DNA of 64,000 bases from assembly GCA_963714675.1 (NCBI GenBank), contig CAVQPG010000004.1:563184-627183 (forward strand), written 5' to 3'. The notes under the pieces are model-generated. The model searched no databases. It worked only from the letters and a program-made list of their open reading frames with translations, and was not told the origin of the DNA. The number at the start of each line of letters is the position of its first letter. Within the stretch, counting starts at the first letter, position 1. The stretch comes from an uncultured Chloroflexia bacterium (GTDB lineage Bacteria; Chloroflexota; Limnocylindria; Limnocylindrales; CSP1-4). The position numbers and the translations under genes were made by a program. This document shows positions 1 through 64,000 of the stretch, in pieces.

Positions 1-2
1 TC

Positions 3-1772
3 GTGATCGTGGCCCGCGAGAGCGGCCGTCCCTCGGGTGCTGCGGCCGCGCTCGGGCTGGCCTGCTGGGGCCTGCTCCTGGCACAGCCGTCGATGATCAC
101 CGACATCGGTCTGCAACTCTCGCTGGTCGCGACGGCCGGCTTGCTGGCCCTCGGTGCCCCGGCCGAGACGGCCGTCAGACGGGTCACCCGCGACCGGGGG
201 CCACGCTGGCTCAAGGAGGTGCTGGGGGTGTCGCTGGCGGCCCAGCTCGCGACGCTGCCGCTGATCCTGCTCCATTTCGGGCGGCTGTCGCTCATCTCAC
301 CACTGGCCAACCTGCTGGTCGCGCCGGTGGTGCCGCTGGCCATGCTCGGAGCGGCGGTGGGCACGCTGGTCGGTCCGCTGATGGCGGGGCCGGACATGGC
401 ACTCGGGCTGGCGCCGCTGCTGGTGGCGGCCTGGCTTCCGTTGGCGTTGATGACGCGTGGCGCCGGACTGCTGGCGCAGGTGCCGCTGGCCAACGTGGAG
501 TTGCTCCCGCCCTTCGACCTCATCGGGGCTGCCATCGCGCTGGGTGCCCTGGCCCTCGCCCTGCGCCGGTCACGCAGCATGCCCGGCCCCGCGCTGCGGC
601 CGTGGCAACCGCCGCCGGCTGCGGGCGCACCCCGTCGTCGGCGTGCTCCTGCCGTGCTCATCGGCCTGGTGCTCGTAGGGGTCACCTCCGCGACGCTGGT
701 GGGGCGGACGGTGCCAGCCTTGCGGGTGGACATCCTCGACATCGGCCAGGGTGACGCCATCCTGCTCGAAGCGGACGACGGCACCCGTCTGCTGGTGGAC
801 GGCGGCCCGGACCCGGACCTGCTGGTCCGGCGACTCGACGAGCGCATCCCGGCCTGGGACCGGCACATCGACCTGGCCCTGCTGACCCATCCCCACGAGG
901 ACCACGCTGGTGGGCTGGCCGGTCTGGTGCCGCGCTACCGGGTCGGGCGCATCATCGAGACGGACATGAACTCGGAGGGATCGGGAGTCCTGGAGCTGCG
1001 GGCCGCTGCGGAGCGGTACGGTATCCGGCGGCTGCGCCTCAGCCAAGGTGACTCGTTCACGCTCGGGGGCGCCCGGGTCGACGTGCTCTGGCCGCCCGAG
1101 GATGCGATCCCCGACCGGGTCATCACCGACGGTCGAGCGGTCAACGGCACCTCGATCGTGCTGGCGGTCAGCCTCGGGCGCCAGCGCATCCTGCTTACGG
1201 GTGACCTCGAGGACGATCACGACGCTGATGTGCTCGGCGTCATCCCTCATGACGACCGGCGCTGGGACCTGCTCAAGGTCGCCCATCACGGCAGCGCCAC
1301 CGCCTCGAGCAGGCCGCTCCTCGACGTCCTGCGGCCACGTCTCGCGGCGGTCAGCTCCGGCCACGGCAATCGCTACGGCCATCCCGCTCCGGCCACCCTT
1401 GGACGGCTCTCCGAGGTCGAGGCCAGGATCTGGCGCACCGATCGCGAGGGCACGCTGTCGGTCGCGTTCGATGGCCGACCGCGGTCGACGACGGCGCTGC
1501 TGGAGGGGCTGCCACGGTCGACCTGCCCATCACGACGCGAGCGACCCATGCCTGACGCGACCGCTCCGGCCGAGCCCTGTTACATTCGACCCGATGGCGG
1601 TACCCACCCGAACCGAAGCGCTTTCCCTGCTCGTCTCGACCTCGCCCTCGCCCCGCTTGTTACAGCACGTGACCGTCGTGGCGGAATTGGCCTCGTTCCT
1701 GGCCTACCGCGCCTCGCGAGCTGGCCTCACGGTCGACCGACGGCTGGTGGAAACGGCCGCGCTCCTCCATGA
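3..1772 (+). CDS. comEC: ComEC/Rec2 competence protein, C-terminal part with metallo-beta-lactamase-fold domain; 5' end cut by window
   Basis: Motifs HPHEDHAGG, VAHHGS and GHPAP are typical of the ComEC MBL domain. The ORF is open to 1772 but its last ~180 nt overlap the next gene. A frame-2 stop near 1555 suggests the true end is earlier and frameshifted. Confidence 0.75.
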   Translation: MIVARESGRPSGAAAALGLACWGLLLAQPSMITDIGLQLSLVATAGLLALGAPAETAVRRVTRDRGPRWLKEVLGVSLAAQLATLPLILLHFGRLSLISPLANLLVAPVVPLAMLGAAVGTLVGPLMAGPDMALGLAPLLVAAWLPLALMTRGAGLLAQVPLANVELLPPFDLIGAAIALGALALALRRSRSMPGPALRPWQPPPAAGAPRRRRAPAVLIGLVLVGVTSATLVGRTVPALRVDILDIGQGDAILLEADDGTRLLVDGGPDPDLLVRRLDERIPAWDRHIDLALLTHPHEDHAGGLAGLVPRYRVGRIIETDMNSEGSGVLELRAAAERYGIRRLRLSQGDSFTLGGARVDVLWPPEDAIPDRVITDGRAVNGTSIVLAVSLGRQRILLTGDLEDDHDADVLGVIPHDDRRWDLLKVAHHGSATASSRPLLDVLRPRLAAVSSGHGNRYGHPAPATLGRLSEVEARIWRTDREGTLSVAFDGRPRSTTALLEGLPRSTCPSRRERPMPDATAPAEPCYIRPDGGTHPNRSAFPARLDLALAPLVTARDRRGGIGLVPGLPRLASWPHGRPTAGGNGRAPP

Positions 1773-2262
1773 CGTGGACAAGGCGCTGCCCCCGGACCAT
1801 CCGCTCAAGGCGCTCGGGCACGGCGCCGCCGGCGCAGCTTGGCTGACCGAAGCCGGACACGCGGAGCTGGCACGCACGCTCATCGCGCACCCGGTCACCC
1901 GCTTCACCGACCCCGAAGCGGAGGCTTGGGTCACCGACGCACCCATCGAGGAGCGCATCGTGACCTACGCCGACAAGCGCGCCACGCAGCGCGTCGTCAC
2001 GCTCGAACAGCGTTTCGATCGCTGGCGCAAGGATCACCCCGAGTACCGGGCCAAGCTCGACCGCGCCTACGCCATCGCGCAACGCCTCGAGGAGTCGCTC
2101 TGCACCGCCATCGGCATCGAGGCCGCCGACGTCGAACGGCTGCGCTGGGTCGACGACGCCATGTCGCGAGCCTTTGCGGCGGGCCTGCCCGACGGGCAAC
2201 CAGCCGCATCGGTCGATGGGTTGCCGGTCTACGGGGCACCGGCCGATCCCTCGGCGGCATGA
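1594..2262 (+). CDS. yqeK: HD-domain hydrolase of the YqeK family (usually encoded next to nadD)
   Basis: Start ATG is residue 183 of ORF 1048-2262. Motif HVTVVAELASFLAYRA...LLHDVDK and the HD-fold spacing support the call. Its stop overlaps the holA start (ATGA). Confidence 0.7.
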   Translation: MAVPTRTEALSLLVSTSPSPRLLQHVTVVAELASFLAYRASRAGLTVDRRLVETAALLHDVDKALPPDHPLKALGHGAAGAAWLTEAGHAELARTLIAHPVTRFTDPEAEAWVTDAPIEERIVTYADKRATQRVVTLEQRFDRWRKDHPEYRAKLDRAYAIAQRLEESLCTAIGIEAADVERLRWVDDAMSRAFAAGLPDGQPAASVDGLPVYGAPADPSAA

Positions 2263-62407: not shown

Positions 62408-63070
62408 ATGACTCCGAACCAGCCACGAGCGCGCCGCGAGCCGGAGTGGCCCAGCCACCGCGACGACGCGGCGCCCCCCGCGGATCCACGCTCGCTCCGA
62501 CGTGGCCTGCTGGCCGGCGCCTCGGTGGCGATGGTGACGCTGGCGCTGCTGATGGCCGGACCGTGGTCGACACAGGCCGGCGGCACCCTGCTGGGGCTCG
62601 GCTGGATCGCGGCCGTCGGGTTCGGAGCGCTGGCCTATCGCGGCCGGCCGCCGGTGGTGCTGGCCCTGACCAAGCTGGCGCTGCTGGCGGGCCTGGCCTC
62701 GCTGGCCGGGGCCCTCTTCCTCTTCTTCATCAGCCTGCAGGTCCGCGCCGTCCTGGAGGGCACGGTCGTCTTCGGGACGGCCGGTGAGGGCTGTACGGTC
62801 CAGGGTGATGGCGCTTCCTTCAGCTACGGCCAGCCCACCTACCAGGTGGCGCACCTCGCGCGAACCATCGCAGCGGGTGAGCTCGTGACCCTGACCATGC
62901 TCCAGGACGGCTCGGAAGTGGCCCGCGGGTCCAACGCCGCTGAAACCGCCTTCGACTGCCTCGGAGCGCCGCTCGAGCCGCTTCCGACAGGTGACTACGA
63001 AGTGACCGTCTCGGCCGGCGACGAACGCCTTGCCGAGGGCCGCTTCACGGTCGTGCCCGGGGACCGCTAG
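62408..63070 (+). CDS. Membrane protein, hypothetical (three TM helices plus an extracytoplasmic domain)
   Basis: 220 aa with hydrophobic helices. No recognised family. Confidence 0.45.
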   Translation: MTPNQPRARREPEWPSHRDDAAPPADPRSLRRGLLAGASVAMVTLALLMAGPWSTQAGGTLLGLGWIAAVGFGALAYRGRPPVVLALTKLALLAGLASLAGALFLFFISLQVRAVLEGTVVFGTAGEGCTVQGDGASFSYGQPTYQVAHLARTIAAGELVTLTMLQDGSEVARGSNAAETAFDCLGAPLEPLPTGDYEVTVSAGDERLAEGRFTVVPGDR

Positions 63071-63139
63071 CCCCCTATACTCGCTATCCATCATGCATAC
63101 GCTTCATGCAGTGGGATGACTTCATCGAAGGAGGAGTTC

Positions 63140-64000
63140 GTGACCCAGGCGAAGCTCGTTGACACTGACCAGGACATCGCTCCGCGCCTCGTGACCGAGG
63201 TGCCCGGCCCCAGGGCCCGGGCCCACGTGGAGTACGACCGGAGCTGGTCTTCACCGAGCCTGCCGCGCGCCTACCCCTTCGTGCCGGTCCGCGGCCTGGG
63301 CGCCGAGGTCGAGGACATCGACGGCAACGTCTTCGTCGACTTCTGCGCCGGCATCGCGGTCAACTCCACCGGCCACTCACACCCGGCCGTCATCGCTGCC
63401 ATCAAGGAGCAGGCCGACGAGCTCGTCCACTACAGCGCCTCGGACTTCTACCCGCCGATCTACGCGCAGATGTGCGAAGCCATCGCCGAGACCGTGCCCA
63501 TCCGGGGCCGCAAGCGCGTGTACCTCGGCAACAGCGGCGCCGAGGTCGTCGAAGCCTCGCTCAAGCTGGCGCGGGTGGCCAGCGGTCGTCATGCCGTGGT
63601 CTCGTTCCTCGGGGGCTTCCACGGACGCACCATGGGCGCGGTCACCCTGACCGCCTCGAAGGCCAAGTACCACGCCGGTCTGGCTCCCCTCGTGAACGGC
63701 ATCTACCACGCACCGTACGGCCACGCCGCGGACCTGGCCTGGTTCGACGAGGTCCTCTTCGACAAGATCATGCCCGCCGACGACGTGGCCGCCATCATCG
63801 TCGAGCCGGTGCAGGGCGAGGGCGGCTACATCGTGCCCGAGGCCGGCTTCATGACCGGGCCTGCGCGAGCTCTGCGACCGACACGGCATCCTGCTCATCG
63901 CCGACGAGATCCAGTCGGGCGCGGGGCGCACCGGCAAGATGTGGGCCGTCGAGCACTTCGGCGTGGAGCCGGACATCCTGCTCAGCGCCAAGGGCATCGC
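63140..64000 (+). CDS. Class-III PLP-dependent aminotransferase (GabT/ArgD-like), 3' end beyond the window; frameshift near 63860
   Basis: GTG with a [46 protein letters not shown], then [19 protein letters not shown] after a 1-nt shift. The antisense ORF 63377-63997 is rejected. Confidence 0.75.

Follow-up and report, generated by a model that had tools for sequence, protein, structure and literature searches.

Genomes in reductive decay, such as those of Mycobacterium leprae and of young endosymbionts, are characterized by deletions, nonsense codons, truncations, IS insertions and eroded codon bias. Programmed +1 frameshift sites, for example that of prfB, are conserved and motif-dependent. 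Residual indels of Nanopore-only data have been described in bacterial and metagenome assemblies (PMC9262707; PMC13087279; proovframe, bioRxiv 10.1101/2021.08.23.457338), and for soil, frameshift errors are commoner in Nanopore than in HiFi assemblies (PMC13087279). The MFD-LR MAGs were obtained from Nanopore reads only, by Flye assembly and one round of Medaka polishing; the MAGs singled out by their coding-density quality check were rich in homopolymers and low, not high, in GC (PMC12313526).

The window, i.e. the whole 64 kb stretch of DNA analysed here, belongs to a soil metagenome-assembled genome of Limnocylindria (Chloroflexota) and has a GC content of ~70%. As in decay of the Mycobacterium leprae type, many conserved genes are frameshifted within one region, but the mixed lesions and the eroded codon bias of decay are absent. 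With prfB-type programmed frameshifting the window has in common a single-base +1 shift inside an essential gene; its sites, however, lack a motif and occur in one assembly only. Residual Nanopore indels are similar in that one-base consensus indels truncate predicted proteins and do not occur in short-read data. We also count as a likeness that they become more frequent with low coverage and in complex soil metagenomes and that orthologue alignment can correct them. The classical form consists of length errors, mostly deletions, in long homopolymers, whereas in the window 94% of the lesions were insertions, without homopolymer enrichment and without a run of seven or more.

Frameshifts in the window

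Events were called with a custom frameshift-aware dynamic-programming aligner, which compared intact orthologue proteins with the window DNA, and were curated with DNA alignments and HMM profile coordinates. This aligner was used instead of tblastn HSP chaining, which undercounts dense events. Stop-to-stop reference ORFs produced balanced false plus, minus and STOP events at gene boundaries, and the noise floor was taken as the rate of such false events in Illumina loci (~0.17/kb). The closest accurate-read relative (92% DNA identity) covers 3.5 kb, and most events were judged against orthologues of 60-90% protein identity. Loci of relatives are designated by L and a number.

Altogether 48 frameshift events were curated in the 64 kb (0.75 per kb), affecting ~23 of the ~62 genes. 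This is more than the number (over 30 one-base shifts) given in a preliminary description of the DNA. All genes named there were found by alignments and profiles to be frameshifted, and two (NfeD and EamA) were added. Insertions (44 +1 and one +2) greatly outnumbered deletions (45 versus 3, binomial p=1e-10). The positions were patchy (variance-to-mean ratio 6.2, or 1.5 when psuK was left out): psuK alone had 13 events within 700 nt, and the first 13 kb were free of them. The affected genes are the following (window coordinates, strand, events).

13327..14216, minus strand: malG-like ABC permease; +1 at 13603 and 14000
17619..19796, plus strand: BNR-repeat protein; +1 at 17693, in the signal-peptide region
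23315..24737, plus strand: dppC permease; +1 at 23411, at about residue 32
25708..26803, plus strand: dppF ATPase; +1 at 26128
26457..28100, minus strand: S41 peptidase; +1 at 26824 and 27986
29793..30320, minus strand: TadE-like protein; +1 at 30237
30641..31261, plus strand: NfeD-like membrane protein; +1 at 31231
31325..32970, plus strand: flotillin (Band_7/SPFH); probable +1 at 32428 and 32582
33271..34393, minus strand: Tad (TadG-like) protein; +1 at 33349, ~20 residues before the C-terminus
34386..35050, minus strand: TadE-like protein; +1 at 34521
35067..35989, minus strand: TadE-like protein; at least two +1, near 35201 and 35612
36461..37850, minus strand: Tad/Tad_C protein; probably divided among two or three frames
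40143..41037, minus strand: HAD-family phosphatase; +1 at 40389, 40714 and 40733
42069..43004, minus strand: psuG (pseudouridine-5'-phosphate glycosidase); -1 at 42108, +1 at 42497, 42849 and 42940
43003..43983, minus strand: psuK (PfkB kinase); error hot spot with 13 frameshifts between 43213 and 43905 (~700 nt)
44560..46781, plus strand: tkt (transketolase), in three frames; +1 at 45442 and 46271
46782..48496, plus strand: pgi; +1 at 47535 and 48058
49446..51135, plus strand: zwf (glucose-6-phosphate dehydrogenase); +1 at 50439
51087..52380, plus strand: opcA; +1 at 52287
53562..54410, plus strand: modA; +1 at 53928, 54112 and 54311
54400..55262, plus strand: modB; +1 at 54553 and 54704
55261..56170, minus strand: EamA-family transporter; +1 at 56029
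63092..64000 (cut by the window end), plus strand: class-III aminotransferase; +1 at 63857

The malG-like permease could be aligned, by the frameshift-aware method and at the DNA level, with residues 1-295/296 of the Illumina orthologues L083 and L084 (86-87% identity); its fragments were 79-93% identical and had GC3 (third-codon-position GC) values of 0.83-0.96. For the BNR-repeat gene, which was also aligned by the frameshift-aware method, the window read GGCC[G]CTGG and the same two references GGCC-CTGG. The dppC gene was aligned with the 477-aa protein of Illumina L170. Its +1 shift was also seen against L088, the local alignment agreed, and the NCBIfam match of the main frame started only at profile position 58. 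Profile coordinates and DNA alignment located the shift in dppF: the frame-0 ORF matched positions 9-142 and the frame-1 ORF positions 136-325 of NF008453 (334 positions). The S41 peptidase was aligned with the 541-aa orthologue of L170.

Direct comparison with accurate reads was possible with the Illumina contigs L086 and L087 (92% DNA identity), against which every coding-region indel was an extra base in the window. Examples are CCCGG[T]CGGCC at 27986 in the S41 peptidase gene and GGACCA[G]CG at 30237 in the first TadE-like gene, the latter also found by frameshift-aware alignment. In the NfeD-like gene the extra base at 31231 (GGCT[C]CCGACC) was missing in L086. The preliminary description had proposed comparison with a closely related finished genome; in the 92%-identical contigs, over 3.5 kb, the indels were absent.

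The splits reported earlier in the Tad-like genes and flotillin were confirmed, but those of flotillin, three Tad genes and Tad/Tad_C (36.4-37.9 kb) were judged on weaker references, limited to Nanopore relatives, Pfam or the frame plot. In flotillin the main frame contained the Band_7 domain, and a weak Flot domain followed after 32424, one frame on; the +1 shifts were seen against L088, a Nanopore relative, and the frame plot stepped from 1 to 2 to 0. The Tad genes at 33271..34393 and 34386..35050 were aligned with L001 and L088, Nanopore references only. The same two served for the gene at 35067..35989, where errors in both references as well leave the exact number of events uncertain. Related sequences do not cover the Tad/Tad_C region, hence its split was deduced from the Tad domain (profile 10-44) and Tad_C in the ORF 36975-37799, which is overlapped by a 384-aa ORF of another frame.

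The HAD phosphatase was placed by Pfam HAD and by alignment to Illumina L003, and its extra base at 40389 was missing in 9/10 relatives. The psuG insertions at 42497 and 42849 were backed by 16/16 Illumina references and, at the DNA level, by 21/21 and 21/22 relatives. In psuK (ten +1, one +2, one -1 and one -2) the residue-level alignment to Illumina L003 showed well-conserved blocks between every pair of shifts, and each event was backed by 7-9 relatives at the DNA level. The extra bases of tkt (GTC[T]GGC and CCC[G]GGC) were missing in 51/51 relatives at 45442 and in 46/48 at 46271, in agreement with 27 and 25 Illumina references, respectively; the fragments had 83-86% identity and GC3 values of 0.91-0.93. 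All three pgi fragments were 81-86% identical to L003. At the zwf site 15/15 references and 36/38 relatives agreed, with 89-91% identity on either side, and at the opcA site (window CCC[G]TACC) 7/7 references and 9/9 relatives did so. The modA events were called with Illumina L092 and L009 and Nanopore L001 and L010. At 54704 in modB 4/4 relatives agreed, Illumina L092 among them, and the EamA event was found by alignment with Illumina L090 and L092 and backed by 4/4 relatives. In the aminotransferase, the match to Pfam Aminotran_3 passed into the next frame at profile position 215 (10-215 before and 215-261 after the change of frame); the base at 63857 was missing in 4/4 Illumina relatives.

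Several candidates were rejected. The events at 4613/4630, 10435, 16899, 17590, 26736, 30639, 41004, 42989 and 46781 and all events at 60.1-60.8 kb were gene-boundary or upstream artefacts; a suspected frameshift at ~60.6 kb proved to be two genes, encoding a treble-clef zinc-finger protein and an aldehyde dehydrogenase. The event at 28077 was an artefact, absent in the comparison with the closest Illumina contigs. The -1 at 39786 was an error of the relative L001, not of the window, and ~20 cases in which the window seemed to lack a base relative to L088 (23-25 kb and 31-32 kb) were insertions of L088 itself.

Conservation of the corrected genes

After correction, the genes matched intact orthologues over their full length, end to end, and fragment-by-fragment alignment bore out the earlier statement that the pieces rejoin into full-length proteins. 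Protein identity (81-93%) and GC3 (0.90-0.96), which reached down to 79% and 0.83 in fragments of the malG-like permease, were unchanged across the shifts, i.e. neither lower identity nor eroded codon bias was detected downstream of the lesions. No in-frame stop codons were found inside the corrected genes in the orthologue alignments. Apparent stop events occurred at similarly low, boundary-artefact rates in all three classes of the census described below (0.14-0.21 per kb), and the window did not exceed the Illumina controls. Truncations and IS elements were not found in the window.

Comparison of sequencing platforms

The frameshift-aware census included 30 Flye-assembled Nanopore loci with 'contig_' names (26 named Microflora Danica, MFD, and four ENA ERZ250395xx) and 34 non-MFD loci of the same class, mostly short-read, two being of unidentified platform. 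The Nanopore loci contained 267 +1 events in 424 kb (0.63/kb) among 357 events of all types. The 34 non-MFD loci contained 19 in 347 kb (0.055/kb); these were balanced with -1 events and are therefore boundary noise. The window, with 27 in 47 kb (0.57/kb), fell with the former, and at the Illumina background rate 27 or more such events would arise with a probability of 1e-18. The excess of the Nanopore loci over background was 244 +1, 27 +2 and no -1 events. When tblastn hits were chained as an independent approach, 80 supported events were obtained for Nanopore loci versus one for Illumina loci. When tkt, pgi, zwf, psuG and opcA were considered gene by gene, the rates were 0.5-0.9/kb and 0-0.06/kb, respectively. 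Within the class, the same spectrum thus recurred in Nanopore assemblies and was missing from Illumina ones, and in the other Nanopore assemblies the events occupied non-homologous positions. Error rates of the Nanopore relatives ranged from 0 to 4.8/kb. Since some of them had no events, the error must depend on a factor besides platform, presumably coverage.

Sequence context of the insertions

The preliminary description had placed the shifts in G/C-rich runs and ascribed them to homopolymer indels. This part did not hold. When event positions were compared with homopolymer runs, as suggested there, the longest run within 6 nt averaged 2.48 at events, against a background value of 2.50 (p=0.46), and events near a run of at least five amounted to 2%, equal to background. 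The window has no runs of seven or more and only seven runs of six. The G/C-rich runs showed no excess of events over background, and the indels did not concentrate in the runs (typically of at least five) that are the sites of classical Nanopore length errors. Aligned insertions such as GTC[T]GGC, CCA[G]CG and CGG[T]CGG illustrate this. A k-mer search at the event sites gave weak enrichment only and no discrete motif: CGC and CGCA contexts were modestly enriched (odds ratios 1.8 and 2.35), and local GC was slightly higher at events (0.723 versus 0.709).

Discussion

The insertions are real features of the assembly: they are unique to it, biased towards extra bases, not associated with homopolymers, and patchy. 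Judged from the sequence comparisons, they are very probably spurious bases of a Nanopore-only assembly, in which the genes themselves are intact rather than lost. The window is most probably a Flye and Medaka product of the Microflora Danica type, made from Nanopore reads only. The extra bases were presumably introduced during consensus building or polishing, probably in stretches of low or uneven coverage. The consensus would then carry single extra bases at ~0.75 per kb, and each of them would shift the frame of an otherwise intact gene under normal selection, so that gene callers would see two to fourteen fragments per gene.

An artefact with a specific cause, as opposed to random low-coverage noise, is a tentative variant that we consider possible but the less likely one. 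Basecalling errors at modified bases, a polishing model ill-suited to high-GC DNA, or the collapse of co-occurring strains into one consensus could give patches like that in psuK. The strong clustering of the events, the modest CGC/CGCA and GC enrichment and the wide span of rates among Nanopore relatives are in line with such a cause. The lack of a discrete motif speaks against it, as does the psuK hot spot, which was absent from other Nanopore relatives and is thus not universal among them. Somewhat more doubtful still is the idea of a systematic, so far unflagged error mode of Nanopore R10.4.1 / Flye / Medaka on ~70% GC DNA, CGC-biased and patchy, which modification or polishing-model mismatch might trigger. 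If it were true, a sizeable share of high-GC Microflora Danica MAGs, GTDB representatives included, would have 0.5-5 false frameshifts per kb and pass the coding-density check.

Genuine large-scale pseudogenisation, i.e. a decaying genome carrying real frameshifts, is very improbable. With ~23 of 62 genes disrupted, several of them many times, the window has the look of decay, and a very recent mutation burst may be imagined from the sequence. Decay should, however, have left nonsense codons and deletions besides the insertions, and would hardly have struck tkt, pgi and zwf together, which are central to the pentose-phosphate pathway and glycolysis. The window has 94% one-base insertions, no excess of nonsense codons, no truncations and no IS elements, with identity and GC3 constant across the shifts. 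The events are private to the window assembly, not inherited: none was common to any of up to 51 relatives (e.g. at the tkt, psuG and zwf sites). Moreover, accurate-read assemblies of the class are clean, while unrelated Nanopore assemblies have the same spectrum at other positions. The earlier preference for assembly error over decay is borne out by this platform contrast, by the private events and by the unchanged conservation and codon bias without a stop excess. Programmed ribosomal frameshifting or transcriptional slippage, by which real but harmless shifts would be restored, has only the common +1 direction in its favour and can practically be dismissed, as the sites have no shared slippery or homopolymeric motif, are conserved in no relative and number 13 in 700 nt of psuK.

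With frameshifts that are almost certainly assembly errors, neither the limits of ORFs nor apparent pseudogenes in the window can be relied on, as had been cautioned, and other findings made in it should be discounted where they depend on ORF limits or on overlaps of gene ends. Homopolymer-based quality filters would miss the errors because the insertions sit at ordinary sites. The same problem exists in many of the Nanopore-only genomes by which GTDB represents Limnocylindria species, with up to ~5 frameshifts per kb, and truncated sequences from such genomes seed protein databases. Gene calls, pseudogene counts, metabolic reconstructions and protein-length statistics from the contig are unreliable: naive annotation would report loss of the pentose-phosphate pathway, of molybdate uptake and of pseudouridine catabolism. 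In the organism these genes are almost certainly intact and nothing biologically new is involved; the value of the finding is a warning about data quality.

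Gene content and relatives of the window

The GC content of the window is approximately 70%, with a strong signal at the third codon position. The closest proteins come from MAGs of the Chloroflexota class Limnocylindria (best-match identities: transketolase 89%, CTP synthase 93-94%, TadG 78%). In addition, one TadG cluster representative of 538 aa shows 100% identity to the protein of the window. The genes are arranged in the following order:

Start of the window: ComEC, HD-domain protein, holA, EamA, RsfS, murI, nadD, obg, rho, TAL_FSA transaldolase, pyrG
After pyrG: sugar ABC transporter, BNR protein, dppABCDF, S41 peptidase
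After the S41 peptidase: three sets of Tad-like genes, interspersed with NfeD and flotillin
After the Tad-like sets: HAD phosphatase, psuG, psuK
After psuK: tkt, pgi, 6PGD-like gene, zwf, opcA, pgl
After pgl: MerR/TOBE regulator, modA, modB, second EamA
End of the window: several further genes, then aldehyde dehydrogenase and class-III aminotransferase

Synteny of the pentose-phosphate cluster from tkt to pgl (44560-53136) is kept across Limnocylindria MAGs. The cluster contains no tal; a small TAL_FSA-type transaldolase gene (9766-10533) is located 35 kb away, adjoining pyrG.

Number and direction of the frameshifts

For comparison, 80 related loci around tkt were taken from species-representative genomes, and further loci around pyrG and TadG were added, as were JGI metagenome contigs from the neighbourhood of the aldehyde dehydrogenase gene. 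Jointly they cover 56 of the 64 kb. Frameshifts were located with a custom protein-to-DNA aligner that allows changes of frame, using intact ORFs of short-read assemblies as references, or, for the Tad region, ORFs of Nanopore relatives. Local DNA alignments were inspected for each event, and psuK was additionally examined by residue-level alignment. The first firm confirmation came from dppF, in which a frame-0 ORF matched profile positions 9-142 and the overlapping frame-1 ORF positions 136-325, both in one model of 334 positions.

The curated total was 48 frameshifts (0.75 per kb) in about 23 of the approximately 62 genes. The preliminary description, made from the sequence alone, had counted more than 30, which was too low. 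Every gene it had listed proved to be frameshifted (flotillin and the Tad/Tad_C gene probably so), and NfeD and EamA were found to be frameshifted as well. As it had also stated, the fragments rejoin into full-length proteins: the corrected genes span their orthologues end to end (tkt, reference residues 3-771 of 771; pgi, 1-570 of 570). The two sides of each shift matched the orthologue equally well (81-93% protein identity) and did not differ in third-codon-position GC (GC3, 0.90-0.96), and no in-frame stop codons were found in the flanking fragments in the orthologue alignments.

The spectrum was strongly one-sided (binomial p=1e-10). Single extra bases relative to the intact orthologue (+1) accounted for 44 of the events; the others were one insertion of two bases, two single missing bases and one two-base deletion. 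The extra bases are peculiar to the window: that at 45442 in tkt was absent from 51 of 51 aligned relatives, that at about 46273 in the same gene from 46 of 48, that at 42497 in psuG from 21 of 21, and that at about 50432 in zwf from 36 of 38. When the region 27.9-31.4 kb was compared with two Illumina-derived contigs of 92% DNA identity (JGI 3300004001 and Logan SRR10448216), all coding-region indels were extra bases in the window (approximately at 27988, 30237 and 31231).

Comparison of Nanopore and Illumina relatives

Twenty-six of the related loci are bins of the Microflora Danica (MFD) collection ('MFDxxxxx.bin') with Flye-style contig names, and four ENA loci (ERZ250395xx) are named likewise. 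MFD MAGs are Nanopore-only, assembled with Flye and polished by one round of Medaka (PMC12313526). Most of the approximately 34 non-MFD loci have contigs named in the MEGAHIT or SPAdes manner or originate from JGI; two of the 34 (L009 and L036) are of unidentified platform. Both classes were analyzed with identical references and the same aligner.

The Nanopore loci gave 357 frameshift calls in 424 kb, 267 of them +1, whereas the Illumina-class loci gave 59 calls in 347 kb, evenly spread over +1, +2, -1 and -2 (19, 9, 21 and 10). The latter calls are boundary noise of the method, and their subtraction left a Nanopore excess of 244, 27, 0 and 14, respectively. With 27 +1 calls in 47 kb the window is in line with the Nanopore class (P=1e-18 at the Illumina rate). 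Independent tblastn chaining supported 80 events for the Nanopore class, 74 being +1, and a single one for the Illumina class. Calculated per gene for tkt, pgi, zwf, psuG and opcA, the rates were 0.5-0.9 per kb versus 0-0.06 per kb. A recent benchmark likewise found frameshift errors in soil assemblies to be commoner with Nanopore than with HiFi (PMC13087279).

Among the Nanopore MAGs the rate ranged from 0 to 4.8 per kb, indicating that the quality of the individual assembly, rather than the lineage, is decisive. Far worse than the window was L088 (54 calls in 11 kb, 4.8 per kb), followed by L016, L034 and L050 (about 2.8-3 per kb) and L001 (about 2 per kb). L016, L034 and L050 were drawn from the GTDB species-representative collection, while L088 and L001 are ENA contigs obtained separately. 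Frameshift-aware alignment gave no calls at all for the Nanopore loci L049, L056, L082 and L169.

A decaying genome would be expected to show lesions of mixed type, nonsense codons and an erosion of codon bias, and to have inherited some of its lesions; the observations do not fit this pattern. Apparent stop-codon events, which are boundary artefacts, were similarly low (0.14-0.21 per kb) in the window and in the Nanopore and Illumina classes, thus there is no excess of nonsense mutations. All of these results fit consensus error and none fits decay, which we regard as very improbable. The platform contrast, the private +1 events, the unchanged identity and GC3 and the lack of a nonsense excess bear out the original preference for assembly error, and the frameshifts almost certainly belong to the sequence file, not to the organism.

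Sequence context of the insertions

The proposal that the shifts sit in homopolymer runs did not hold. The longest run within 6 nt averaged 2.48 at the events versus 2.50 for coding positions chosen at random (p=0.46), and 2.52 versus 2.53 in the Nanopore relatives. Homopolymers in the window do not exceed 6 nt, and just seven reach that length. In the alignments the insertions occurred at ordinary sites such as GTC[T]GGC, CCA[G]CG, CGG[T]CGG, TCC[G]ATC and CCC[G]TAC (inserted base in brackets). Within 5 nt of the +1 sites of the window and the Nanopore loci, CGC (odds ratio 1.8) and CGCA/TGCG (2.35) were modestly enriched, AGG, CCA and CCTC were depleted, and no discrete motif emerged. Local GC at the events was slightly above background. 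The weak CGC/CGCA signal might hint at a context-dependent bias of basecalling or polishing.

Clustering of the events

The events were distributed unevenly (variance-to-mean ratio 6.2, p=2e-25). There were none in the first 13.3 kb (13 intact genes) or between 56.1 and 63.8 kb, and about 20 were packed into 40.3-44.0 kb. In psuK (43003-43983), 13 frameshifts fell within about 700 nt, approximately one per 55 nt and far over the window average; the protein blocks separating them were well conserved. This hot spot was not reproduced in the other Nanopore relatives and is therefore a local defect of the window's assembly. Plausible causes are coverage that is low or one-sided and a mixture of strains; DNA modification is a possible one.

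Tad regions and the psuK-tkt spacer

Positions 35874-39611 form an island of lower GC (about 0.62 versus 0.70), to which none of approximately 75 loci aligned. It carries a further Tad-like set:

~36461-37850, Tad/Tad_C protein
37750-38214, TadE
38211-39221, TadE-PKD protein

The island may be variable or may have been acquired. In the related contig L169, Transposase_mut genes are inserted between Tad-like gene sets (9604-11896), which points to Tad regions prone to rearrangement in this lineage.

The psuK-tkt spacer (43984-44560) is about 580 nt long, compared to only about 150 nt in L003, the closest Illumina relative. It contains a coding-like ORF of 108 aa (44146-44469, GC3 0.89), similar to the C-terminal portion of an AHSA1/Polyketide_cyc2 gene of L001 (283 aa). 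It may represent a gene that is truncated or carries a frameshift, possibly a +1 at 44148.

Implications

The frameshifts carry no biological novelty. As they are almost certainly consensus errors, the earlier warning that ORF boundaries, apparent pseudogenes and overlapping gene ends in the window are untrustworthy stands. The only useful by-product is the description of an insertion-biased, homopolymer-independent error mode for high-GC Nanopore-only MAGs, which reaches public reference genomes and protein databases. In a protein search with 44506-45498, many transketolase entries on contigs of 0.3-1.7 Mb were truncated (e.g. 388 or about 555 aa, where more than 620 aa are expected), indicating that frameshift errors of long-read MAGs are spreading into protein databases as clusters of fragments.
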